In this document: positions 871 to 11,293 of the stretch, piece after piece | Numbering within the stretch: the first letter of the stretch is position 1 | How the letters are laid out: each line of letters starts with the position of its first letter | IMG/VR virus record: IMGVR_UViG_2778261064_000009 | Span: 1-11,293 of that record | Length of the DNA stretch: 11,293 nucleotides | From: a virus | Lineage: Duplodnaviria; Heunggongvirae; Uroviricota; Caudoviricetes | Direction: 5' to 3' (one strand) | Notes under the pieces: generated by a model | What the model was told of the DNA's origin: nothing | Seen by the model: only the letters and a program-made list of their open reading frames with translations | Databases searched by the model: none | Made by a program: the position numbers and the translations under genes

Positions 871-1470
871 TCAGAATTTATAACCGACACCCACAATGAA
901 ACCGTCAGTGCGCCAGTCGCCACTGCCGGAGCCTTCATAAGCAATATCAATGGCCACGGATTCGGTCGGGTTAAACTGCACGCCAGCCCCCCACGCCAGT
1001 GACGTGTTGCTGTGGCGACCGTCATCACTTCCGGTCAGCACATCGTGCGTTTTCCCCTTGTTGTCAGGTACACGGAGATAATCCCCGGAAAAAGTCGACA
1101 CTCGACTGTAAGCCACACCCACCATCGCATACGCGCTGAACCCTTCATTCACGCGCACAGACGGCCCCGCCATCACGCTGAACCAGCGGTTACGAATGGA
1201 ATCTTCATGCCAGCGGGTATCACTGTAACGGGTAAGCTGGCGATTCATGTCTCCTGCATAGCTGAATGACGTCACCAGCCCCAGCGTGTCCGTAAATTCA
1301 TAGCGGTATTTCACGTTGAATCCGGTTAAATCATCACTGCCGGACATATCAGAATGGGTATGAAGATACCCGGCACTCAGAGTGGAGTGATTCTCTGCTG
1401 CACCCGCTGGCGCACCCGCAGCGGCCAGCCAGACGACTGCAGACATAATAACAGCACATAATTTACGCAT
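871..1470 (-). CDS. lom: Lom outer-membrane protein (Ail/Lom/PagC family beta-barrel); lysogenic-conversion moron
   Basis: 199-aa ORF with an N-terminal signal peptide (MRKLCAVIMSAVVWLAAAGAPAGAAE) and the C-terminal motif SGSGDWRTDGFIVGVGYKF, which is characteristic of lambda Lom as I recall it. RBS GAGAGG lies 5 nt upstream of the ATG. It sits between J and stf as in lambda. Confidence 0.9.
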   Translation of the reverse strand: MRKLCAVIMSAVVWLAAAGAPAGAAENHSTLSAGYLHTHSDMSGSDDLTGFNVKYRYEFTDTLGLVTSFSYAGDMNRQLTRYSDTRWHEDSIRNRWFSVMAGPSVRVNEGFSAYAMVGVAYSRVSTFSGDYLRVPDNKGKTHDVLTGSDDGRHSNTSLAWGAGVQFNPTESVAIDIAYEGSGSGDWRTDGFIVGVGYKF

Positions 1471-1493
1471 AATTACCTCTCGCTTTTCTGCAA

Positions 1494-1519
1494 TAAAAAA
1501 GGCACCATTTCTGGTGCCC
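1494..1519 (-). terminator. Putative intrinsic terminator downstream of J
   Basis: On the minus strand, the hairpin GGGCACCAgaaaTGGTGCC is followed by TTTTTTATT. It lies between the J stop (1538) and the lom RBS. Confidence 0.5.
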
Positions 1520-1537
1520 TTATATGGGTTATAAAAT

Positions 1538-4500
1538 TCAGCTGATACTGATGCCTGCGGTGGCTTTCTTCATCACCACAACCAGCAAATCGCTGATACT
1601 TGCTGTGGGATACCAGTTATTCACCAGCCATGCTGACACCGAAAACTCCAGTGTCATGTGACCGTGACCGGCAGGCATATCAATAACGCCACTGTAAATC
1701 AGCGTATTATCCAGCGCGGTACGGTTATAAATTTCAGCACCGTTTTTCCGCACTATCAGACGGCATGAGGAGTAAATATCAGTATGCTCTCTCTCATGCT
1801 TAGCGCCACTGAATGCCACCGCCGGAATAACAATCTGCCGGTCAAACGGCTGATCGTCATAAACCCTGACGGTAATGGTCCCTGATGGCCACCGCTCCGG
1901 TGCCCGGGAGTCCCGCGGGAAAGCCTTACCCACTGTTTTGACAATATCGCCTTCAATCTGGTTGGCTGACAGTTTCCCCTTAATCTGACAGTTCTCATTA
2001 ATCGTGACGTTGTTGAGCGTCCCTGAGTTCGCATTCACACTGCCACTGATATCCGCATTTTTAGCGGTCAGCTTTCCGTCCGGTGTCAGGGAAAATGCCG
2101 GTGGATTTCCACCACTGGTAATGGTGGGGGCCGTCAGGCGTTTCAGGAACACGTCGTTCATGAATATCTGGTTGCCCTGCGCCACAAACATCGGCGTTTC
2201 ATTCCCGTTTGCCGGGTCAATAAACGCGATACGGTTAGCGGCAACCAGAAACTGGCTCAGTTTACCGTCCTCCGTGTCCTCCATGCTGAGGCCAAGCCCG
2301 GCAACATAATGCTTACCGTCTTCGGTCTGCTCAATTCTGACGCCCCACATGGCATTCCATTTATCGTTAGCGTCTTTCCACTCTTTCGAAAACTCATCCA
2401 GTCTGCTGGCGTTATCTTCCGTCAGTTCAGCGTTTTCCAGCAGCTCTTTACCGAGATGTGTTTTATTAATCAGCCCTTTGTAAAAATTCAGGTAGCCTTC
2501 GGCATCATCGCTGGCCCGGCCGACGGCCTCCACAAATGCCGATTTGCCCACCAGGTTGACGCTGCGGATATAAAAATAATAATCATGGCCCGGCCTGATA
2601 TTACTGGCGGCTGTCCAGTACAGCGCCGTGCCAAGATAGCGGGCGGAGGTTTCAACCTGCCTGATATCCGCAATCTGCTGTTCCGAAAACCAGAATTCAA
2701 ACTGCACCGTCGGGTCATATACAGCCAGTTTCGGGACCGCCGTTATCTGAAAATACCCCGGTATCAGTTCAATGGTGGCAGGCGCTGCCGGGGCGTCAAT
2801 CCGGAACGTGGTGGTGGCAGGTTCGCCCTGCTGGCCATAGCTGTTAATCGCCCTGACCGTCAGGGTGTATTCCCCGGGCGGCAGACCACTGAAACGGTGC
2901 GCCGTGTCTGCGGTGATGGCGGTGGTCACCAGGCGGCTGTTTTCACCGCTTCCGCTGGTCAGACGCAGACTGAAGCTCACACCTTTCACCACCCGCGGCG
3001 TGTCCCATTTCGCCTGCGCCAGATACTGGCCGTCTGAGGCACTCACCTCCACCGTGAGGTGCTGCACTGCCGGAGGGATAACGCTGTTCAGGGTGCCTGA
3101 CTGCGGCTCAAAGCTGGCCCCGTTATCCACGATGGCTTCTTTTTCCGGTACGTGCTGCACCGCCGTGATGGCAAAGGTGCCATCCGTGTTTTCCCGGATG
3201 GCGACACAACGGAACAGGCGACGACGCAGTGACGGCAGGGAGAGTCCCCACACACCGTATGTCGCCACGCCATCAGGCAGGGTACTGACCTGTATCCGGT
3301 CCGGCGCGGGGTGTGCGGTGATGTCCACACTCATCGGCTTACCGCTGCCGTTAATCAGGTTCACCGTGGCGGTACCGGTCTCCGGCAGTGTCACCTCACG
3401 GTCCAGCGTCAGTGTGCGGCTGGCAGCGTCGATGGACAGGATACGTCCGCCGGTCAGGGTCCCGGCGTAGTCGTTATCACAGATTTCAATGATGTCTCCG
3501 GGCGTGTGCCGCAGCCCCTGTGACCCGAGCGTGAAATCCACCGTCTGCGTTTCCAGCAGTCCGGTCTTTATCACCCACAGTCCGGCACGGTGGGCCTGAC
3601 CACGACTGGTGCAGCCGAACGCATCCATCTTCAGCAGGTTGCGTCCGTAGCGCAGTATGGCTTCCGGGTCTTCCACCAGTTCCGTGGAGGTCTGCCAGCC
3701 GTTCTGCGGGTCGGTGTAATTCACCTCCACTGCCGTGTGACGGTCCTTCAGGGCGCTGAAGCTGTAGCGGAACCCCACGCCGTTATCATCCACCACCACA
3801 TCGCTGTTGGTGTACGGCCACACCACATCCGACGGGCGGTCCTGAACGAACGTCAGCGTCTGGCCGTTCCATACCGGCATACAGCGCATCGCCGAGCAGA
3901 AATCGCAGAGCACATCCCATGCCTTACGCTGCTGTGACAGGTACGCATTAAACGTCATCCGCGGCTCTGTCCCTCCGAAGCCATCCGGGACACGCTGGTC
4001 ACAGTACTGCCCGATGGCATACAGCGCCCACTTGTCCACATCCGCCGCCCCCAGACGTTTTCCCATGCCGTAGCGCGGGTGAGTCAGCATGTCCCACAGG
4101 CACCAGGCCGGATTGTTGCTGTATGCCGGTTTCAGACTGCCGTCCCAGATACCGCTGTAAGTGCGTTTTTCCGGGTCATAGTTTGACGGCACCTGGATGA
4201 TGCGACCGCGGATATGGTAGTTCACCGTCATCTGCTGGCCACCGAACTGCTCCGCATCCACCTGCAGCCCCACAATGGCCGTGTTCGGGTAGCACTGTTT
4301 CACATCGATGATTTCGGTGTATGACGACCACAGCGTTCTGTTCTGCAGCTGGTCCGTGGTGCTGTCCGCCGTCTCCCTGACCATCCGGATGTTAAAGGGG
4401 CGGGGAGGCAGATTATCCAGAATCACCGACGCCAGAAACTGCGAGGTGGTCTTGCCGTTAATGGTGACATCCTTTTCCGTCACCCAGTTACCGTTACGCT

Positions 4501-4924
4501 GTAACTGAATCAGCAGCCGGACAGAAGCCGGATTACGGTCACCCTGTGAGGTTGTCTGCACCAGTGACTGTACGCCGAAGGTGACCCGCAGGCGGTCAAT
4601 GTTCGCGGACGTAATGGTGCGCGTCACCGGCTTTGCCTTCGTCACTTCCACGCCCAGTGCGGTTTCAGCTCCGGAGGACTCAAAGCCTTCCGGCGGGGTC
4701 TGCTCCTGCTCCCCGGCGCGCCAGACCGCGGTCACACCGTGTATCACGGGATTACCGTCCGTGTCCGTCAGCGGGGTTTTGTTCACCAGGATACTCTGCA
4801 GTCCCTTCACCGGGCCTTCCACCGGTCCCTCTCCAATCGCATCAATCACGCTCATCATCTGCGTGGATTTGAGATTATCCTTTGCCTCAACCGGCGTGTG
4901 CCCCTTGCCGCCACCTTTGCCCAT
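1538..4924 (-). CDS. J: Central tail fibre / host specificity protein J (tail tip attachment protein)
   Basis: The ORF track gives 1538..4966; the true start is the ATG at 4922-4924, where the protein begins [30 protein letters not shown]. This is nearly identical to the lambda gpJ N-terminus as I remember it, and similarity extends through most of the roughly 1128 aa. RBS AAAGGGTGAG is upstream. The 14-aa extension in the ORF track is read-through of the upstream spacer. Confidence 0.95.
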
Positions 4925-4955
4925 TGTCTCACCCTTTACTGTGATAACTGTTACG

Positions 4956-4988
4956 CACAAAAACAACAGGCATCCCGGAGGATGCCTG
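4956..4988 (-). terminator. Terminator-like hairpin with U-tract in the I-J spacer (minus-strand orientation)
   Basis: A 9-bp perfect stem, caggcatcc / ggatgcctg (4967-4988), with a 4-nt loop. On the minus strand it is followed by TTGTTTTTGTG. It sits about 30 nt upstream of the J start. Confidence 0.4.
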
Positions 4989-5116
4989 TATCATGACTGA
5001 ATAAAAATTCTGAATTTCTTCACATTCTGAAAAAAAAGACTGTTGCGCTGATAAATACGCTGCGTTACTTTTTAGTGCCTGAAAAATAACTCCATAACGT
5101 TAATCTTCATCGTTCT

Positions 5117-5151
5117 CTCCCGCAGCTCCGCGATCACTGCGGGATTTTTTT
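5117..5151 (+). terminator. Terminator-like hairpin with T-tract in the I-J spacer (plus-strand orientation, antisense to the tail operon)
   Basis: An 8-bp stem, tcccgcag (5118-5125) / ctgcggga (5137-5144), followed by TTTTTTT (5145-5151) on the plus strand. On the minus strand the same hairpin has no U-tract, so it reads as a one-directional plus-strand terminator. Confidence 0.4.
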
Positions 5152-5158
5152 ATTCTTT

Positions 5159-5839
5159 TTACCCCTGCCGCCCGATAACCACGACCTTTCCGCCCCCGCC
5201 TTCATCACGGGTGCTGATGTCCTGGGATATACGGCGGGAGCCAACCAGCATTTCCCCGTAAGGCACCGGCATCGGGTTCCCCTGGGCAATCATGTTATCC
5301 AGCGAGGAAAAGTACGTGTTCTGTCTGCCGTTATCCGTTGCGCGGTAATCCGGTGTTTTTGCCTTCGGGGCCAGCATCTGGGCCACACCGCCCAGAATCA
5401 TGCTGGCTCCCAGTGAAAACAGCATCGTGGTGGCAGAAAAACCGCCGGCACTCAGGGCTGTACCCCATAACGCCATCGAGGCACCGGCAGTGAAGAAAGA
5501 GCCCACGATGGCTGCCGCCCCCAGCACAATCTGCAGTCCACCCTTTCCGGCCCCGGCCAGTCGCGGCACAATGTGGATGACCGTTCCCTCACCCAGCTGT
5601 TCGTGAAGACGGGCGTACACCGCCTCCGGTGCCGTGTCCTCACCGCGAATACGTATCTGGTACCAGCCTTCGTTCATCTGACGGCGGAATCCCGGCATCT
5701 GCATCGACAGGGCACGGATGGCTTCCGCTGCCGTGTTCACATACAGGCTGAGGCGGCGGCCAAATCGTTGCAAATCCCCGTGAAGGCAGATGCGTGCCAG
5801 TGGCGGTGACGCCAGACAGAATGCGTTCGTCGTTGCCAT
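5159..5839 (-). CDS. I: Tail tip assembly protein I
   Basis: 226-aa ORF starting MATTNAFCLASPPLARICLHGDLQRFGRR and containing the Gly/Ala-rich hydrophobic segment QIVLGAAAIVGSFFTAGAS and the C-terminal motif TYFSSLDNMIAQGN. Both are co-linear with lambda gpI as I recall it. Its 5' end overlaps the 3' end of K by about 100 nt in another frame. Confidence 0.9.
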   Translation of the reverse strand: MATTNAFCLASPPLARICLHGDLQRFGRRLSLYVNTAAEAIRALSMQMPGFRRQMNEGWYQIRIRGEDTAPEAVYARLHEQLGEGTVIHIVPRLAGAGKGGLQIVLGAAAIVGSFFTAGASMALWGTALSAGGFSATTMLFSLGASMILGGVAQMLAPKAKTPDYRATDNGRQNTYFSSLDNMIAQGNPMPVPYGEMLVGSRRISQDISTRDEGGGGKVVVIGRQG

Positions 5840-6480
5840 TTTTCGGAATACCTCTCCCGTTTACTCAGTTGTTCAGGCAGATGGTGAAGCAGTTCACCGT
5901 TGCCGCAGTAAATGGCGGCATGATTGGCCACCGATGCGCCAAAGCAGCACAGCAGGATATCGCCCGCCTGTGCAGAGGACAGGGGCACCCGGTAAAAGCC
6001 TGTGACCGCCATATTGTCCAGGTAAAGGTTCTGACCGTTGCGCCACCAGTCATCCTCACGCACAAAATCCGGCAGCGTTATCCCCGCCAGATGGTATGCA
6101 TCCCGGAACAGGGTGTAACAGTCCGTCACCCCGTGCTCAAAACGACGCCCAGTCAGGTGCGGCACACAGCGGAATTTGTGAATTTCCCCCCGGCAGACCA
6201 GCCACCAGGGCAGGGCACTCTTTATCTGCAGCCGCCGGTCCGCCTCGCTCAGCCAGGGCAGACCACCGGGGTGGCTGTGAACCAGCGCCACAATCTCCCC
6301 CTGCATCTCTGCCTGCAGCCAGTCTTCCGGCGCAATACGAAAATACGCCTCCGGCTCTGCGGAGATATTCACGCAGGGCTGGTACCGTTCGCCCTCCGGG
6401 GTGCCTATCACGAAGCCGCACAACTCCGCAGGCGCACACCGCCGGGCATGCACCAGAATCGCTGATTCAGTCTGTGTCAT
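5737..6480 (-). CDS. K: Tail tip assembly protein K (JAMM/MPN metalloprotease-like domain plus NlpC/P60 cysteine peptidase-like domain)
   Basis: The ORF track gives 5737..6741, but the first 87 codons overlap L and look non-coding. The real start is the ATG at 6478-6480 (MTQTESAILVHARRCAPAELCGF...), giving 247 aa. A JAMM motif (HSHPGGLPWLSEAD) and an NlpC/P60-like Cys/His pair (GVTDCYTLF ... NHAAIY) are visible. Confidence 0.9.
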   Translation of the reverse strand: MTQTESAILVHARRCAPAELCGFVIGTPEGERYQPCVNISAEPEAYFRIAPEDWLQAEMQGEIVALVHSHPGGLPWLSEADRRLQIKSALPWWLVCRGEIHKFRCVPHLTGRRFEHGVTDCYTLFRDAYHLAGITLPDFVREDDWWRNGQNLYLDNMAVTGFYRVPLSSAQAGDILLCCFGASVANHAAIYCGNGELLHHLPEQLSKRERYSEKWQRRTHSVWRHRHWHASAFTGICNDLAAASACM

Positions 6481-6490
6481 AAAACAGGAT

Positions 6491-7189
6491 TTACTGCGAA
6501 AGTTTATTGATGGAAAGGAAACCGCCAAAATTAGCCACCATGCCGCGCATCTCACACCCGCGCATGCACTTGCTGCATCTGTCCTTACGGATATCGGTGG
6601 TGGGTTTATCGAACTCATCCGCCACAGCCCCGCCCGTGTAACCACACTCATCAGAGCGGTAGGTCCACATACAGGTATTCGCCAGCATAATGCGACCGGG
6701 AAACAGCGCCCCGTCCGTCTCCGTCGGTGTCGCCAGCACAAACGAGGCTGTCATGGCCGTCAGCTCTGACATCTGCTCCACCACCCAGCGGTCGCTCAGC
6801 TCCTGCTCCGGGTCCGCTTCCGGATTGCCCGCCACAAAATTCACCGCATCCAGAAAACGGGCATACACCCGGCGGCGGACCACCGTTGCCCCCACCAGGC
6901 TCTGCAGGTCCTCCGCCATCCCGGTGACCAGACCAAACAGATTGGACACCGTCAGCGACGGGCGGGCACTGCTGCCCTTCCCGTTCATCTCAAAACCGCT
7001 GCCGTCAATCGGGTATACCTGATATTGCCGCCCCTGCCAGGTGACCGCCTCCCCTTTTTCATTCAGCTCATTGCAGAAAAAATAGCGCTCACCGCCCTGC
7101 ACCGTCAGGTCAATTTCCCAGAGCACCACCCGCGGTGACTGCTCTGATTTAACCGACTCGTTCAGGCTTTCTTCATGAATATTCTGCAT
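6491..7189 (-). CDS. L: Tail tip protein L
   Basis: 232 aa, starting MQNIHEESLNESVKSEQSPRVVLWEIDLTVQGGERYFF, the same length as and co-linear with lambda gpL as I recall it. There is a C-terminal cysteine cluster (CMWTYRSDECGYTGG...CSKCMRGCEM). The start codon overlaps the M stop (TGATG). Confidence 0.9.
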   Translation of the reverse strand: MQNIHEESLNESVKSEQSPRVVLWEIDLTVQGGERYFFCNELNEKGEAVTWQGRQYQVYPIDGSGFEMNGKGSSARPSLTVSNLFGLVTGMAEDLQSLVGATVVRRRVYARFLDAVNFVAGNPEADPEQELSDRWVVEQMSELTAMTASFVLATPTETDGALFPGRIMLANTCMWTYRSDECGYTGGAVADEFDKPTTDIRKDRCSKCMRGCEMRGMVANFGGFLSINKLSQ

Positions 7190-7530
7190 CAGTTCACCAC
7201 CTGCTCAATCGTACAGCTGAAATCACTGTACCGGGCGTTATCCGTGACGCTCCACTCCCGGCACACCACCCTCACCGTCCGGTTATGTTTCGGCGGTCGC
7301 CACAAAAAGGCACGGTAACCACCATGCCAGGATAAAAATTCATCCAGCCAGCGCCGGGTTGACTCATCCGTCACCCGGAACACCGCCTGAAACGTCTTCA
7401 GTTGAGGATTCAGCCCTGTGGGGCGACGCTGTTCATAACCGTCACCAAACCGTACCCTCGCCACCGACGGTTTCTCACTCACCTGCATCCCTTCACGCGG
7501 GACCAGATGCAGCGTTTTTATCTCAGCCAC
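7189..7530 (-). CDS. M: Minor tail protein M
   Basis: 113-aa ORF containing the motif VARVRFGDGYEQRRPTGLN and ending EQVVN, like lambda gpM as I recall it. The ORF as drawn starts at a GTG (7528-7530) with GGAGGA about 10 nt upstream, overlapping the end of H. The exact start codon is uncertain. Confidence 0.85.
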   Translation of the reverse strand: MAEIKTLHLVPREGMQVSEKPSVARVRFGDGYEQRRPTGLNPQLKTFQAVFRVTDESTRRWLDEFLSWHGGYRAFLWRPPKHNRTVRVVCREWSVTDNARYSDFSCTIEQVVN

Positions 7531-10138
7531 TCAGCATTCCTCCGTCACGTCGCATGGACAGCATCACCGCCTGCACCCGCTGGTCAATCAGCTGCACAAG
7601 ACTGCCTGCCGCCTCCGGCCCTATCTGGCCATTAGTCCCGTCATTCTGAATGGCGATATGGTAGACCGGGGAATACACCAGACCCGCACTGCCGTTCATA
7701 CTGCCCACCGCTCGCACACCCAGCGAGCCATCCGCCGCCCGGGTCAGGGGCATAATGGCTTCAGGACCGGCCTCCCCCATCAGTCCCGCCCCTTTTGCAA
7801 AGGCAAAGTACGTGGGCGTATCCACAATACTGTTGCTGTACGCACTCAGGTTTGCCGAGGTATACACGCCGCCTTTTGCATTGGCCACCGCCCCGCCCAG
7901 CCAGTCACCAATGCTGCCGAGAAATCCTCCCGCACCGGACATACCGTTTGCCGCCGTCTTAATTCCGTTGACAATCGCGGCATTCATAAGAACTTTTGAT
8001 ATTTCCTGCAGCACTGATGAGGCCCAGCTGCGCCATTCCACTTTATTTCCGTTCAGCATCTCCGTGATGTTATTCACCATCCCTGAGATACCCTCCGTCG
8101 CAAGCTGTGCTGCCTGTGAGGCGTAATCGGACGCATTATCCACCCAGTTACTGAACCCCTCCTGCAGCCCTTTCTGCCAGTCCGCACGCTGCACATCCGA
8201 TTCGGCATAAAAGGCTTCCTGCTCTTTCAGACGTTCACTCAGATACTGTGCATTCTGCGCCAGAGCCTGTCTGTAAAAATCCTCACTGATATCCCCGGTC
8301 TGATACTGAGACTGAAGGTCCGCATCCTTCTGGCGGAAGCTGTCGCGGATCTGCTGCAACTCCCGCATGCGTTCTCTGGCTCGTTCCCCCTGCCCGTACC
8401 CCAGCAGTTCAGCATCATTCGACGCACGCGCAGCCGCATTCTCATTCTTCAGTGTCTCTTCCCGGGATCGCAACTGTTCCCGGATTTTTTGCTGGTCAAT
8501 CAGGGCCGCATTACGCAGCAGCTCCTGCTTCTGCATCTCCGTCAGGGTTTTCAGTTCGCCCTGCGCAGTCTGGTATTTCAGCTTCGCCAGCTCTGTATTC
8601 TGCCCCACCAGTGCCAGTTGCTCTTTCTGCTGCTTCAGCAGCCGGGAAAAACTGTCTTCCGCTTTTTCCGTCTCTGATTTTCCACCCCGGGATTTGGGTT
8701 TATTCGCCTCGTTATTGCGCCAGGCTTCCAGGGCATTACTGATATAACGCTGTCTCGCCTCCTGATACGGATCACCCACAAAACCGAGGTCATCCGCCGC
8801 ATACCCCAGCCGGACACGCTCTTTTTCTTCCCCTTTCAGTCTGGACAGGGCCAGCTCACGCTCTGTTTTTGTCAGGGCACTCTGCTGTTTATCATCCAGA
8901 GTGGCCTGTGGCAGCCGTAACGGCACATTCACCAGTCCCTGCCGCTGCTGAAGCAGTTCATTACCCAGCCCCAGCAGACGGTTGAATTCCGTATGCTGAC
9001 CATTCATAACCAGCATGGACTGGTACACCTTATTCTGCTCTGCCGCCTGCTGACGAATTAACGCCACACGACGGTCTTCCAGCCCGGCAAGCACATCCTG
9101 AATGGACTGCGCTTTTTCCTGCATCTGTGCCAGACGGGACTGCTCAACGGCAAGCTGCTCTGTTGCCTGAGCAAGCCCTTCCGTTACGGTCTTCACCGAG
9201 GTCAGATGGTTTATCATGAATCCGTCACCGGTCGTCCAGCCCGGGTTCGCCAGAACATACTGATATCCTGCGATTTTTTCCTGCAGGGATTTCACCCGAC
9301 TGGCCTGTTCATCAATCAGCCGGTTCTGCTCTGTCAGCGCCGCCCGTGTTCGTCCTTCATTATCTGAGGCTTCAGGCAAAGACATTGACGGCGTTTTATG
9401 CGCGATTTCATCTATCGTCAGTGCATACTGGCGCGCAGACTCCCTGGCCTGCTCCTGATTCTGGTACAGCGTGTACCACGCTGCAGCCCCCAGCATCACC
9501 AGTCCGGGTACGCCACCAACCAGCCCCAGCGCACCGCTCATCAGACGTGAGCCCACCGCCGTTGTACTGTTCAGCGCATTCTGGGCGGCGCTTCTGGCAG
9601 CAATATTTCTGTTCAGGCGTTCCTGTGTGGCCGCCAGACGGGCCTCTGCAGCAATCTGCATCTCCGTCCCGCGGGCTGCCGCCACGGCCTGCTGAGCACG
9701 GTACACGGCTGCCCTTGCCCGCGCCGTGGCAATCTGCGTTCCCCTGAACTGTGCTTCCGCCAGTGCCACTTCATTACGTGCTGCCGTCACAAGTCCTGCC
9801 GTGGCAGACACCGCTCCGGAGGCCATATTGCCAAAGTACCGGGCAACCCCGACGGCAACCAGCGCGCCCACGGCTGTTGCCACATTATCAATCTGTCCGG
9901 CAACACCGTTCAGCATGCCGGAGAGCGTTTTTGTCACCCCGCTGGCCTCATTCGCACCGCCCACCCAGGCCATAAAGGCGTTTTCCACCTTTGTGATACT
10001 ACTGGAAACCGTTTCCGGCATGGCCGCATATTCATCACGTAATATCCCCAGCTGGCTGATTAACGCGGGGACCACTTTATCCGCTGTCAGTTTTCCGTCA
10101 TCCGCCATTGCCTTCAGATCTTTACGGGCCACGCCCAT
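7523..10138 (-). CDS. H: Tail tape measure protein H
   Basis: Long Ala/Gln/Glu-rich, coiled-coil-like ORF with a hydrophobic segment (LGLVGGVPGLVMLGAAAWYTLYQNQ) and a C-terminus (HIAIQNDGTNGQIGPEAAGS...RRDGGMLSG) resembling lambda gpH as I recall it. The ORF track starts at a TTG at 10276, but the first 46 codons look non-coding (His/Pro-rich, poor codon character). I place the start at the first ATG (10136-10138, MGVARKDLKAMADDGKL...); the ATG at 10106-10108 is an alternative. Neither has a strong RBS. Confidence 0.8.
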   Translation of the reverse strand: MGVARKDLKAMADDGKLTADKVVPALISQLGILRDEYAAMPETVSSSITKVENAFMAWVGGANEASGVTKTLSGMLNGVAGQIDNVATAVGALVAVGVARYFGNMASGAVSATAGLVTAARNEVALAEAQFRGTQIATARARAAVYRAQQAVAAARGTEMQIAAEARLAATQERLNRNIAARSAAQNALNSTTAVGSRLMSGALGLVGGVPGLVMLGAAAWYTLYQNQEQARESARQYALTIDEIAHKTPSMSLPEASDNEGRTRAALTEQNRLIDEQASRVKSLQEKIAGYQYVLANPGWTTGDGFMINHLTSVKTVTEGLAQATEQLAVEQSRLAQMQEKAQSIQDVLAGLEDRRVALIRQQAAEQNKVYQSMLVMNGQHTEFNRLLGLGNELLQQRQGLVNVPLRLPQATLDDKQQSALTKTERELALSRLKGEEKERVRLGYAADDLGFVGDPYQEARQRYISNALEAWRNNEANKPKSRGGKSETEKAEDSFSRLLKQQKEQLALVGQNTELAKLKYQTAQGELKTLTEMQKQELLRNAALIDQQKIREQLRSREETLKNENAAARASNDAELLGYGQGERARERMRELQQIRDSFRQKDADLQSQYQTGDISEDFYRQALAQNAQYLSERLKEQEAFYAESDVQRADWQKGLQEGFSNWVDNASDYASQAAQLATEGISGMVNNITEMLNGNKVEWRSWASSVLQEISKVLMNAAIVNGIKTAANGMSGAGGFLGSIGDWLGGAVANAKGGVYTSANLSAYSNSIVDTPTYFAFAKGAGLMGEAGPEAIMPLTRAADGSLGVRAVGSMNGSAGLVYSPVYHIAIQNDGTNGQIGPEAAGSLVQLIDQRVQAVMLSMRRDGGMLSG

Positions 10139-10165
10139 ACCCGCAGCCAGTGCACGTGTGGGGTA

Positions 10166-10308
10166 GTGATCAATTCTGGGCGGGGTTAGTGCAGCCTGGT
10201 AGAACCTGCAAGCCTTGTGTGGCGCGGGGTGTGGTGATTTAGTGTGATTCTGGGCGGTTTTGTGAGAAATGACCAAAAACGCTTTTTTTTGCGCTTTTTT
10301 CTGGGCGC
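10166..10308. repeat. Three direct copies of TTCTGGGCG in the non-coding leader upstream of H
   Basis: Copies at about 10175-10183, 10248-10256 and 10299-10307. The first two share an extended match (GTGAT[caa]TTCTGGGCGG). A 9-mer recurring three times in about 150 bp is very unlikely by chance. Confidence 0.5.
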
Positions 10309-10468
10309 TTTTGATCTGGTTCTGCTACAAACTTAACGGGTTTTAAATGCTTTTAAAAAGTGTTTTATCCTTGCCCGTTTTCCTCAAGTTGTTCTCATCT
10401 GTTGTGTTCGGTTTTGTTGTGGTTATTGCTGATTAGCTAACAGCACACGCCCCGCCAAAACGAGGCGC

Positions 10469-11095
10469 TTATGCTGATTTCTTGTTTATAGGCTTAGTTT
10501 TTTGCTCCGGTGTGACGGGAACGCGATCACCTGGTGTTCCTGCTCGGATACAGGATTTGGCGCGTTGCAAAATCTCTTTGTCGGTTTCTTCATTACCAGC
10601 CAATGCCACGCAAATGGCCTCTTTTAGAGAGTCCCTTATGTTTAAGTTACGTATAACAGTTTCTATGTCTGTTTCTACTGACGTAGCCAGCCGATTCAAA
10701 ATCCCTTTTACACCGATTTCTGATGCTGCTATCGCTAACGCTTTTCGATCCTTACTACTTACAAATCCTAATAATGAAACGATTAACGCAACAGAATCAT
10801 CGTTACAATCGTACTTTGGTTCGCTTTCTTCATAATCATTCGAATAATCTCCTTGTGGTTGTTCTCCTGTAAGTAGCCACATAAGTGAAACGCCACAGGC
10901 ATCGGCAACCCTTGCTGCGCTATCAATGGTTGGGTAACTATCTCCCCTTAGGTATTTCCTGACAGATGCTTCAGATAAGCCACTACGGCGAGCAATCTCG
11001 CTTTTGTTTAGCCCCCCCATCGCTTTTTCCAGCCTTTCGCCAAAGCGTACTATTTGCTCATTATGAAAAGTACGATCATGTTTAATTGATGTCAT
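10469..11095 (-). CDS. XRE-family (Cro/CI-type) helix-turn-helix transcriptional regulator with an unassigned C-terminal domain
   Basis: 208-aa ORF with ATG at 11093-11095 and RBS GGAGA about 9 nt upstream. Residues about 25-80 (LNKSEIARRSGLSEASVRKYLRGDSYPTIDSAARVADACGVSLMWLLTGE) fit the HTH_XRE pattern. The C-terminal roughly 130 aa have no motif I recognise, and there is no obvious S24/LexA-type Ser-Lys peptidase signature. Hand-counted samples give about 35-45% GC, well below the flanking tail genes. Confidence 0.75.
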   Translation of the reverse strand: MTSIKHDRTFHNEQIVRFGERLEKAMGGLNKSEIARRSGLSEASVRKYLRGDSYPTIDSAARVADACGVSLMWLLTGEQPQGDYSNDYEESEPKYDCNDDSVALIVSLLGFVSSKDRKALAIAASEIGVKGILNRLATSVETDIETVIRNLNIRDSLKEAICVALAGNEETDKEILQRAKSCIRAGTPGDRVPVTPEQKTKPINKKSA

Positions 11096-11277
11096 AGCGT
11101 ACTATTCTCCAAATCTCATTGATAAACAAAGAAAATTTTCACAAGTCGTACTTTTGTATCAATTTCAACAAAAGTACGATTATTTTCTTGACTTCGTACT
11201 TTAGTGCGATCTATCCTTTATCACATTCGATAATCGAATTTGATTATCGAATTCGATAAACGTGAGAGGATCACACA
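11096..11277. promoter_or_regulatory. Divergent promoter/operator region between the XRE regulator gene and a plus-strand gene
   Basis: Perfect 11-bp inverted repeat TCGTACTTTTG-N12-CAAAAGTACGA (11146-11179). Related half-sites (AAAGTACGA / TCGTACTTT) lie at about 11066-11077 and 11190-11200. A sigma70-like promoter on the plus strand (TTGACT 11188-11193, about 18 bp spacer, TATCCT 11212-11217) is followed by two adjacent palindromes, ATTCGATAATCGAAT (11226-11240) and TTATCGAATTCGATAA (11243-11258), then RBS GAGAGGA (11262-11268) and ATG 11278. Confidence 0.6.
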
Positions 11278-11293
11278 ATGCAGTTGTTGAGAC
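11278..11293 (+). CDS. 5' end of an unidentified plus-strand gene divergent from the XRE regulator (truncated by window end)
   Basis: ATG at 11278 with the RBS GAGAGGA ending about 9 nt upstream, downstream of the predicted promoter and operators. Only about 5 codons (MQLLR) are visible, so the product is unknown. Confidence 0.35.

Follow-up and report, generated by a model that had tools for sequence, protein, structure and literature searches.

A probable two-regulator switch in the c/ner control region of a Mu-like prophage

Positions 11040–11280 of the DNA analyzed here, an 11,293-nt stretch of viral sequence (the window), very probably form the immunity and early-control region, of the c/ner type, of a Mu-like transposable prophage. 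The two repeat families packed into this region are most likely separate binding sites, one for the lysogeny repressor and the other for a Ner/Cro-like protein. An original prediction, made from the letters of the window, had proposed that two motif families mean two DNA-binding proteins and a switch controlling a plus-strand gene beyond the visible sequence, and the comparative evidence below supports this. It had offered a second repressor, an antirepressor or a host factor as the second protein; the first of these stands, in the form of Ner, and the other two do not. We infer the protein-to-site assignments from co-variation: the GTACG-core family (family 1) is assigned to the XRE repressor because it follows the recognition helix of that protein across mosaic prophages, and the AT-rich family (family 2) is assigned to Ner because it goes with the downstream module, which begins with ner (PF13693). 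Feature coordinates are collected in Table 1.

By comparison with related genomes, the Mu-like transposable prophage sits within the tape-measure gene of a lambdoid prophage, with the junction at window position 10157. The left end was defined from two independent insertions and intact tape-measure homologues: an independently inserted copy in E. coli STEC316 is similar to the window from 10155–10157 onwards, and intact tape-measure genes match the window up to 10157 with 100% identity. Three TTCTGGGCG repeats lie within 150 bp of this end and may serve as end-binding sites for the transposase, as L1–L3 do in Mu. The operator region follows 890–1100 bp from the left end, placing the c/ner region ∼0.9–1.1 kb into the element. 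Gene order is a leftward repressor facing a rightward series of ner, a Mu-type transposase and an AAA+ MuB, with Mor and head genes further on. The window holds only the first 16 nt of ner, and the operon was read from E. coli loci that are 97–98% identical; there, ner is followed by a MuA-like transposase gene encoding PF02316, rve and PF09299 domains and then by MuB, an AAA_22 ATPase gene. The ner product of the 97.8% identical locus L001 has 89 aa, matches PF13693 at 1.1e-19 and is 36% identical to Mu Ner.

Searches outside these prophages returned little. When the region was compared by blastn with 50,697 phage records, the sole match was one of 66 bp with Klebsiella phage Kp4866-3, over the Ner operator and the start of ner, and a transposase more than 49% identical was found in no isolated phage. 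A viral-contig scan with the repressor yielded one locus only, identical to the type of L002, a diverged relative used for comparison below, while a scan of one genome per species with Ner yielded mostly distant or chromosomal Ner-like genes.

Table 1. Features of the control region and the adjoining left end (window coordinates)
Feature	Position	Strand	Details
Mu-like prophage left end	10157..10310	+	Begins 5′-TG; three direct TTCTGGGCG copies at 10174, 10248 and 10299
Lysogeny repressor (208 aa), analogue of Mu c/Rep	10469..11095	-	XRE/CI-type HTH N-terminal, residues ∼20–79
Predicted operator cluster 1, three CGTACTWTT sites (-> <- ->)	11046..11106		Sites 11046–11054 (+), 11066–11074 (-), 11098–11106 (+; CGTACTATT); overlies repressor codons 7–17, start codon and RBS
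Degenerate IHF-like element between clusters	11118..11130	-	TATCAATGAGATT, 2 mismatches to WATCAANNNNTTR; status uncertain
Candidate leftward (repressor) promoter	11135..11162	-	TTGATA, 16-nt spacer, TG-GAAAAT
Predicted operator cluster 2	11146..11205		TCGTACTTTTGT 11146–11157 (+), ACAAAAGTACGA 11168–11179 (-), TCGTACTTTAGT 11194–11205 (+)
Early promoter Pe (consensus scan)	11188..11217	+	-35 TTGACT 11188–11193, 18-nt spacer, -10 TATCCT 11212–11217
Putative Ner operator, four half-sites in two dyads	11218..11259		TTATCacattcGATAA 11218–11233, TTATCgaattcGATAA 11244–11259
Shine-Dalgarno and ner start	11264..11293	+	GAGAGG 11264–11269; ATG 11278–11280; MQLLR...; gene leaves the window
Candidate face-to-face leftward promoter	11267..11293	-	Extended -10 TGtGATCCT (complement of 11267–11275)

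The repressor gene lies 313–939 nt from the left end, compared with 339–929 for Mu c. Its product matches Pfam HTH_3 (4.9e-9) and Phage_CI_repr (8.7e-6) in place of PF02316, which was absent in the Pfam domain search, and matches PHROG 3037 ('transcriptional repressor') over its full length (1.9e-33). No Peptidase_S24 (LexA-like autocleavage) domain was detected at E≤0.01, and BLASTP against Mu c gave no similarity. The link to Mu-type repressors instead runs through a sibling prophage locus, L046: residues 105–208 of the window repressor share 50% identity with the C-terminal half of the PF02316-type repressor encoded there, a half common to the Mu-type repressors of sibling prophages. The presence in L046 of a homologous C-terminal half behind a PF02316 domain indicates a domain swap, in which the Mu-type DNA-binding domain would have been exchanged for an XRE helix-turn-helix.

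Family 1 is strongly concentrated around the start of this gene and the early promoter. The exact sequence AAAGTACGA occurs five times in the window, with four copies within 11067–11202; allowing at most one mismatch gives seven matches where 1.2 are expected, a number reached in none of 200 shuffles. The core CGTACTWTT is present in six copies against 0.05 expected, five of them at 11046–11178, and TCGTACTTTA at 11194–11203 supplies the sixth local site. L001 lacks the intragenic AAAGTACGA copy at 10809–10817, which is probably due to chance. The local sites form two triplets ∼100 bp apart, 890–1050 bp from the left end. The inverted repeat at 11146–11179 had been described as having 11-bp arms and a 12-bp spacer; it is indeed perfect and its outer coordinates hold, but the arms are 12 nt long and the spacer 10 nt. 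Sites had also been placed at the regulator's start codon and at the plus-strand -35, and both are there: CGTACTATT adjoins the start codon, whose complement is 11093–11095, and the site at 11194–11202 directly follows TTGACT. Two more sites, missed in that first reading, occur in the first 17 codons of the repressor gene, at 11046–11054 and 11066–11075 (the latter listed as 11066–11074 in Table 1).

The arrangement of these sites is kept in diverged relatives. The first two sites of cluster 1 have an identical 20-nt spacing in L002/L051, and the GTAC centre-to-centre spacings of cluster 2, 26 + 22 nt in the window, are 26 + 23 nt in L002, where the spacers have diverged to unrelated sequence and the site spacing is retained. 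Geometry is conserved not only for the 11146–11179 pair of the original prediction, for which a search of related genomes had been proposed, but also for the pair 11168–11179/11194–11205, which brackets the Pe -35 hexamer. Between the two clusters, the intergenic region of the window holds no match to the IHF consensus at up to one mismatch; at the corresponding location, 16–30 nt ahead of the repressor start, six type-B sibling prophages and Mu have exact consensus sites.

Family 2 lies over the start and leader of Pe and has the layout (TTATC-N6-GATAA)-N10-(TTATC-N6-GATAA), with the inner pair GATAA-N10-TTATC at 11229–11248. TTATC-N6-GATAA occurs twice in the window against 0.01 expected, and all four window copies of ATTCGAT fall at 11225–11257. 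The AT-rich palindromes reported earlier are present (ATTCGATAATCGAAT at 11225–11239 and TTATCGAATTCGATAA at 11244–11259), about one base away from where they had been placed, and do lie between the -10 and the Shine-Dalgarno sequence. The first of them (centre 11232) is lineage-specific, and relatives with the half-sites lack it; judging from these relatives, the conserved unit is TTATC-N6-GATAA, present twice and giving four half-sites in all. GATAA-N10-TTATC is found exactly once per locus in 17/17 related loci from five genera (E. coli, Edwardsiella, Sodalis, Xenorhabdus and a Klebsiella phage), always 46–60 nt upstream of the ner ATG, and the half-sites are invariant while the spacers vary. 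In Mu, the Ner-binding region annotated in GenBank occupies the same place relative to Pe and ner as the dyads do here. For the dyads, DnaA and LexA boxes were also weighed by eye and rejected: type-B relatives have a DnaA box-like TTATCCGCA (8/9 positions) with no match in the window, and the LexA motif CTGT-N8-ACAG is absent. The chance that both repeat families are accidents of base composition is negligible, since the AT-richness of the region is all that speaks for it, while none of 200 shuffles reaches the observed counts and both position and spacing are conserved in diverged relatives.

The promoters frame these sites with unequal certainty. In a weight-matrix scan, the top-scoring plus-strand promoter of 9/9 loci lies at -89 to -91 relative to the ner ATG, in accordance with Pe, whose transcription would start near 11224. 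For the repressor there are two candidate promoters, neither of them strong, and the location is not secure. The candidate at 11135–11162 is doubtful because two substitutions weaken it in the 97.8% identical STEC316 copy. The face-to-face candidate scores moderately, and its -35 TTGTCT, the complement of 11290–11295, lies partly past the window end; L001, L002, L004, L005 and L006 have it at the same position, and it is readable in L007 and L049. A terminator-like hairpin at 11194–11209 was rejected as just operator site 6 with a GC-rich flank inside the Pe spacer. A 46-aa ORF at 11119–11259, which spans the operators and is without support, was rejected too.

The position of the Pe start also bears on a different reading of the AT-rich palindrome, namely that it is no protein operator but gives the early transcript a 5′-terminal RNA hairpin that acts in mRNA stability or ner translation. 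The leader RNA does fold into a 12-bp hairpin (-18 kcal/mol, z = -2.4), and type-B relatives keep a 9–10-bp hairpin, GGATAACAC-N4-GTGTTATCC, in which the loop has changed and some substitutions are two-sided. However, the stem varies in length: in L004 and L005 it has only 6–7 bp around a 10-nt loop. Covariation contributes little (-0.54 kcal/mol), and outside the half-sites no pair is invariant. The outermost half-site H1 (11218–11222) abuts the -10 upstream of the inferred start, so it would be outside the RNA, and it still co-varies with H4 (TTTACC...GGTAAA in L005/L006). An Rfam search returned two sub-threshold matches only, both to eukaryotic families and taken as noise. We consider a role as an RNA element very unlikely and continue with the dyads as a putative Ner operator.

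The assignment of family 1 rests on how the motif behaves when repressors are exchanged. Clusters of CGTACTWTT occur in only 2/50 loci (five copies in L001, four in L002), both encoding repressors with a SEAS[VI]RKY helix, and with L051, which is additional to the 50 and of the same sequence type as L002, the correlation between CGTAC motif and helix covers two lineages (window/L001 and L002/L051) and one near-variant (L010); two other loci among the 50 have single stray matches. Other repressor types have different motifs in the same geometry: GCGGATTTTTG with SEATIRKY, TCGGATTATTG with SETTIRKY or SEKVIRNY, TCGGTTTTTTG with SDTVIRNY, CGT[AG]TTTTT with SEAAIRTY (Xenorhabdus), GGGCTATWTWTG with PPSTLNNY and TTTAAACA with a Mu-type winged helix, all at the same positions. 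An AGAAAG-type motif accompanies the LPYSTINNY helix in E. coli and Edwardsiella alike. Across these loci, family 1 changes whenever the repressor recognition helix does.

Family 2 is fixed with the ner module instead. Where an identical Ner is combined with different repressors (L005/L006; L003/L043), the sequence from the Pe -10 to ner is nearly identical and the upstream operators are replaced. The Ner proteins of the 17 dyad loci have the common helix [STA][LMV][RK]N[AV][FL]xR, and those of Mu, L044 and L046 have other helices, with other sequences at the dyad position. In every locus obtained, family 2 is accompanied by both Ner and the first ∼35 transposase codons, which encode the Mu-type DNA-binding domain at the N-terminus, and none was found that separates the two, so co-variation alone cannot tell which of them binds the dyads.

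The dyads could then be bound, wholly or additionally, by the Mu-type winged-helix domain at the transposase N-terminus and represent a relocated transposition enhancer, the rationale being that the repressor no longer has the transposase's DNA-binding fold. The transposase keeps PF02316, its N-terminus matches a Mu-type repressor PHROG, and its first ∼35 residues form a mosaic unit whose variation follows the ner/dyad module rather than the repressor. Moreover, one transposase N-terminus occurs with two repressor/operator sets (L003 versus L043; L005 versus L006), which means that the repressor operators cannot serve as specific transposase sites in every one of these phages. Against this, the GATAA half-sites are invariant across strongly differing transposase N-termini (a1 SAEKNIRARLDRL, a2 GTVQGVRWTLNRI), and the Ner recognition helix is conserved where the N-terminal helix regions of the transposase differ. 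The dyad architecture and its place over the Pe start suit a small HTH repressor and match the location of the Mu Ner site, and the Mu enhancer is O1–O2, not the Ner site (PMC3145075). We regard transposase binding to the dyads as unlikely and retain Ner as the probable ligand. A wider proposal follows from a repressor with an XRE HTH beside a transposase in which the Mu-type enhancer-binding domain is retained: the operators of the repressor and the enhancer of the transposase may have become uncoupled, the enhancer having moved to the Ner-operator/ner segment, the module linked to the transposase N-terminus, or been lost, with Ner and not the repressor competing with transposase. This is a speculative option that we hold to be rather doubtful.

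In Mu, the repressor operators and the transposase enhancer sites are one and the same, and the CGTAC sites might be used doubly in the same manner, with the XRE repressor and the transposase N-terminal domain, two unrelated folds, recognizing the same DNA. Two clusters ∼100 bp apart at this distance from the left end reproduce the Mu O1–IHF–O2 operator/enhancer layout (PMC3145075), and every locus found with transposase N-terminus a1 also has CGTAC operators. Simple linkage can explain this association, however, and sibling lineages pair one transposase N-terminus with different operator motifs, so that the coupling is not general. Such dual use is improbable, and we take the CGTAC sites as predicted operators of the repressor.

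The scheme that we favor, as regards actual binding, start sites, looping and direction of regulation, is drawn from sequence comparison. The repressor would bind six asymmetric ∼10-bp sites (consensus T-CGTAC-TTTTG) in two triplets ∼100 bp apart. Bound at the promoter-proximal triplet, which brackets and abuts the Pe -35, it would keep ner-A-B transcription off in the lysogen, while the distal triplet over its own RBS and first codons would probably serve cooperative or looped binding and autoregulation, like the Mu O1–O2 clusters. Ner, the Cro analogue and first product of the early operon, would bind the two TTATC-N6-GATAA dyads centred at ∼+2 and +28 of Pe, damping early transcription after induction and hindering leftward transcription towards the repressor gene.

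The regulatory principle is not new; it is that of the Mu c/Ner switch, and the region is an ordinary but cleanly resolved phage genetic switch. What it offers is a concrete, predicted operator map (six repressor sites, four Ner half-sites and Pe) for a widespread, uncharacterised group of Mu-like prophages in E. coli and other Enterobacterales, including copies in Stx-converting and other lambdoid prophages. The natural module swaps further provide a small table of recognition helices and half-sites, e.g. SEAS with CGTAC and SE[ATK][TV] with CGGATT, which could serve to predict immunity groups, and the exchanged repressor domain raises the mechanistic question of where the transposition enhancer is located in these phages.

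Comparison with known switches places the region among those of transposable phages. As at lambda OR, the repressor gene and an early gene encoding a small second repressor are arranged divergently in a bistable logic, operators overlap the early promoter and autoregulation is probable. CI and Cro of lambda compete for one shared set of three operators, whereas the two motif families here are unrelated in sequence, lie in separate segments and each co-vary with a module of their own; unlike that of lambda, the repressor has no detected S24/LexA-like autocleavage domain and its C-terminal half matches sibling Mu-type repressors. Pseudomonas transposable phages of the D3112/B3 group (e.g. PaMx73, LESphi4, Fc02) encode CI-like repressors and a ner-like first early gene (PMC9936078). 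They resemble the present element in combining a CI/XRE-type repressor and a Ner-type early regulator with closely spaced or overlapping promoters (PMC9936078), and their repressor HTH regions are 36–40% identical to ours. This similarity is confined, however, to the HTH region, 33–44% of the protein; transposase identity is only ∼30%, and hosts and operator sequences differ.

In Mu, the promoters PcM and Pe govern the lysis–lysogeny decision (PMC3820752), and the operator/enhancer, situated ∼1 kb from the left end, consists of two site clusters with an IHF site between them (PMC3145075). The present region departs from Mu in its repressor, which has an XRE/CI-type HTH where Mu has a winged helix common to the transposase, in operator and Ner-site sequences unrelated to those of Mu, and in an IHF site that is degenerate here and exact in Mu. 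It otherwise follows Mu and D108 with nearly identical geometry: the same distance from the left end, a leftward repressor and then ner-A-B rightward, a homologous Ner, a transposase with Mu N-terminal DNA-binding and Mu C-terminal domains, a similar layout of end-binding repeats, predicted repressor sites in two clusters with one over the Pe -35, and a putative site for the second regulator between the Pe -10 and the ner RBS that position and co-variation mark as distinct from the repressor sites.

From its gene order and its repeats, we read the region as the c/ner control segment of a Mu-like prophage not characterised before. Beyond the window, in the 97.8% identical locus of E. coli STEC316, the opposite-strand gene after that for the 208-aa helix–turn–helix (HTH) protein encodes an 89-aa Ner-family protein (PF13693, 1.1e-19), followed by a 660-680-aa transposase with a PF02316 Mu N-terminal DNA-binding domain, an rve core and a Mu C-terminal domain, then by an AAA+ MuB-like ATPase and, further downstream, by Mor, lysis genes and Mu-type head genes. 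The ner ATG lies at 11278-11280 and the intergenic region spans 11096-11277.

The window and STEC316 copies are alignable from window 10155-10157, and the window is 100% identical to intact tape-measure genes up to 10157, so the left end of the prophage is placed by alignment at 10157 (5′-TG). Counted from there, the repressor gene occupies nt 313-939 and ner starts at nt 1122; in the Mu GenBank record, c lies at 339-929 and ner starts at 1099. Three TTCTGGGCG repeats near this end are putative transposase end-binding sites, with a layout that we take to resemble the L1–gap–L2–L3 spacing of Mu L1-L3. In the window the element interrupts the tape-measure gene of a lambda-type tail module (minus strand 871-10276: Lom, J, I, K, L, M and the tape-measure protein), so the host lambdoid prophage is predicted to be tail-defective. 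The 917-aa ‘tape measure’ ORF (7523-10276, minus strand) is a chimera whose lambdoid part ends at 10157; given the insertion, its first ∼40 codons come from the Mu-like left end. Over its final kilobase the window matches eight complete E. coli genomes at 97-98% identity, and the exact 10157 junction is absent from all complete E. coli genomes of the collection searched. The STEC316 copy interrupts the holin gene of an Stx2e prophage, directly downstream of stx2e in this Stx-converting element (L001:17746-18981, 19782-19859), where lysis and toxin release by that phage are expected to be affected.

Features of the control region, the prophage left end and the related loci (L001, STEC316; L050, Mu; other L numbers, related loci)
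Feature	Position	Strand	Remarks
Family-1 cluster 1	11046(+), 11066(-), 11098(+)		Over repressor codons 7-17, start codon and RBS
Family-1 cluster 2	11147(+), 11170(-), 11195(+)		Upstream of ner, around Pe -35
Third site of cluster 2, the sixth local family-1 site, TCGTACTTTA	11194		
Pe, best plus-strand promoter	-35 TTGACT 11188-11193; -10 TATCCT 11212-11217	+	18-nt spacer
Family-2 unit, four half-sites	TTATC-N6-GATAA 11218-11233; N10; TTATC-N6-GATAA 11244-11259		Conserved in relatives
Candidate repressor promoter 1	11162-11135	minus	Degraded in near-identical STEC316 copy
Candidate repressor promoter 2	11267-11293	minus	Extended -10 TGtGATCCT, -35 TTGTCT 17 nt upstream; partly outside window
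Exact IHF consensus, WATCAANNNNTTR	L003:4333-4345, L042/L043:2833-2845, L048:2789-2801, L050:947-959		
GATC (Dam) sites	11073-11076, 11207-11210, 11268-11271		
Direct repeats TTCTGGGCG, three copies	10174-10182, 10248-10256, 10299-10307		Within 150 bp of left end; kept in STEC316
Transposase 5′ mosaic segments	L001:21258-21420, L002:4288-4400, L003:4736-4850, L004:4265-4380		
Motif GCGGATTTTTG			Helix SEATIRKY
Motif TCGGATTATTG			Helix SETTIRKY or SEKVIRNY; E. coli and Xenorhabdus
Motif TCGGTTTTTTG			Helix SDTVIRNY; Klebsiella phage Kp4866-3
Motif CGT[AG]TTTTT			Helix SEAAIRTY; Xenorhabdus
Motif GGGCTATWTWTG			Helix PPSTLNNY
Motif of AGAAAG type			Helix LPYSTINNY; E. coli and Edwardsiella
Motif TTTAAACA			Mu-type domain

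Both repeat families of the original prediction are present at 11040-11280, with some coordinates shifted by one base. For family 1, the window has five exact copies of AAAGTACGA, of which four fall within 11067-11202; allowing up to one mismatch gives seven matches against 1.2 expected, a number reached in 0/200 shuffles, and the core CGTACTWTT has six copies against 0.05 expected, five at 11046-11178. The inverted repeat at 11146-11179 is indeed perfect, with arms of 12 nt around a 10-nt spacer rather than the 11-bp arms and 12-bp spacer first described. The six sites form two triplets in the same → ← → order, ∼100 bp apart. In a weight-matrix scan, the top promoter had the same offset relative to the ner ATG, -89 to -91, in 9/9 loci; the -35 of this promoter, the early rightward Pe, is bracketed by the last two cluster-2 sites, with site 6 starting directly after the hexamer. 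Sites had been proposed over the regulator's start codon and near this -35, and are found at both. The fifth AAAGTACGA (10809-10817), deep within the repressor gene, reads TCGAACTTT in STEC316, so it is probably a chance match or a recent gain outside the operator set.

For family 2, all four window copies of ATTCGAT lie within 11225-11257, and the two back-to-back palindromes originally predicted fall at 11225-11239 and 11244-11259. They are present, but the conserved unit consists of four half-sites (H1-H4) instead, the first palindrome, ATTCGATAATCGAAT, being peculiar to the window's lineage. The window has two copies of TTATC-N6-GATAA where 0.01 would be expected; the first dyad adjoins the Pe -10, with its centre at the inferred start near 11224, and the second is within the leader, its end 4 nt short of the Shine-Dalgarno sequence. 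GATAA-N10-TTATC is found exactly once per locus, 46-60 nt before the ner ATG, in 17 loci from E. coli, Edwardsiella, Sodalis, Xenorhabdus and a Klebsiella phage, where we estimate a chance expectation of ∼0.2 across all DNA fetched. Across relatives the half-sites are invariant and the N6 and N10 spacers vary. It is possible that the palindrome acts as an RNA hairpin, as the early leader is predicted to fold into one; however, stem length varies among relatives, covariation is weak, the leader matches no Rfam family, and H1, although placed ahead of the inferred start, co-varies with H4. For the dyads as Ner operators, the Ner proteins of the 17 loci have a common helix, [STA][LMV][RK]N[AV][FL]xR, whereas those of Mu, L044 and L046 have other helices and other sequence at the dyad position. 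The Mu GenBank record places a Ner-binding region equivalently, overlapping and just downstream of Pe.

Mosaic relatives in E. coli genomes served as natural swaps, with repressor, Ner, transposase N-terminus and intergenic DNA compared across 20 loci. Two loci, L002 and L051, have an identical Ner, a repressor DNA-binding domain 68% identical and what we call the same recognition helix (SEASIRKY vs SEASVRKY). Their intergenic spacers are unrelated to those of the window; CGTACTTTT sites recur, their GTAC cores spaced by 26 and 23 nt where the window has 26 and 22 nt, and the in-gene pair of sites is again spaced by 20 nt. Among the 50 loci compared before L051 was added, CGTACTWTT clusters occurred only in L001 and L002; other repressor helices accompany different motifs, arranged alike as an inverted pair on either side of the -35. 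Conversely, L005 and L006 have identical Ner proteins and repressor DNA-binding domains only 48% identical, and L003 and L043 combine a common Ner with repressors that differ; the members of each pair have nearly the same DNA between the Pe -10 and ner, and everything upstream is replaced. Each family thus co-varies with its own module, family 1 with the repressor helix and family 2 with ner, which supports the proposal of two DNA-binding proteins. We infer the protein-to-DNA assignments from this co-variation and from conservation. The first ∼35 residues of the transposase (the PF02316 helix part) also travel with ner and the dyads, not with the repressor, so that on co-variation alone the transposase N-terminus is a possible binder of the dyads. 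Immunity types differ in these ∼35 codons and are 88-99% identical over the remainder, with mosaic breakpoints at the Pe -10 and within the transposase 5′ end. The annotated start of the L001 transposase is 20 codons short, and an upstream GTG gives back the conserved N-terminus. Since one transposase N-terminus coexists with different repressor operators in sibling lineages, and repressor and transposase now lack a common DNA-binding fold, where the transposition enhancer lies becomes a question.

Leftward, candidate promoter 2 overlies the ner RBS and start, a position conserved in the type-A loci (in L001, 20968-20996). It would fire through the second dyad, and we conjecture that a pair of face-to-face promoters could be under the control of a single Ner operator. 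The GAGAGGATCACA before the ner ATG is conserved beyond Shine-Dalgarno need, and read on the opposite strand it resembles an extended -10. The exact IHF consensus stands 16-30 nt upstream of the repressor start in Mu and the type-B siblings; the window equivalent (11118-11130) has two mismatches. The three GATC sites, at which methylation sensitivity is possible, fall in order within operator site 2, 2 bases ahead of the Pe -10 and within GGATCACA, the conserved stretch that precedes ner; in several relatives a GATC adjoins the Pe -10 (TGGATCAATACT in type-B loci).

The repressor N-terminus is an XRE/CI-type HTH (HTH_3, 4.9e-9; Phage_CI_repr, 8.7e-6), the full-length protein matches PHROG 3037 ‘transcriptional repressor’, and BLASTP against Mu c gave no similarity. 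Residues 105-208 (window 10469-10783) share 50% identity with the C-terminal half of the sibling E. coli repressor of L046 (L046:2121-2699), whose own N-terminus is Mu-type PF02316 and resembles that of its transposase, as in Mu. With this common C-terminal half behind an XRE/CI N-terminus, the 208-aa protein is thus a domain-swapped member of the lineage's Rep family, the product of a clean DNA-binding-domain swap. Its tail ends ...NKKSA, which to our eye resembles the KKAV/KKAI tails by which ClpX recognises Mu Rep and MuA. CI-like repressors are already known in the Pseudomonas D3112/B3 transposable phages (PMC9936078), and the HTH regions of that group are 36-40% identical to the window repressor HTH.

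Taken together, the swap data, with conservation and the Mu comparison, support a Mu-type switch. Bound to the CGTAC sites, the repressor would occlude Pe, the distal cluster would serve repressor looping and autoregulation, and Ner bound to the TTATC/GATAA dyads would curb early transcription and counteract transcription leftward. In Mu, PcM and Pe control the lysis–lysogeny decision (PMC3820752), and the operator/enhancer, ∼1 kb in from the left end, consists of two clusters with an IHF site between them (PMC3145075).
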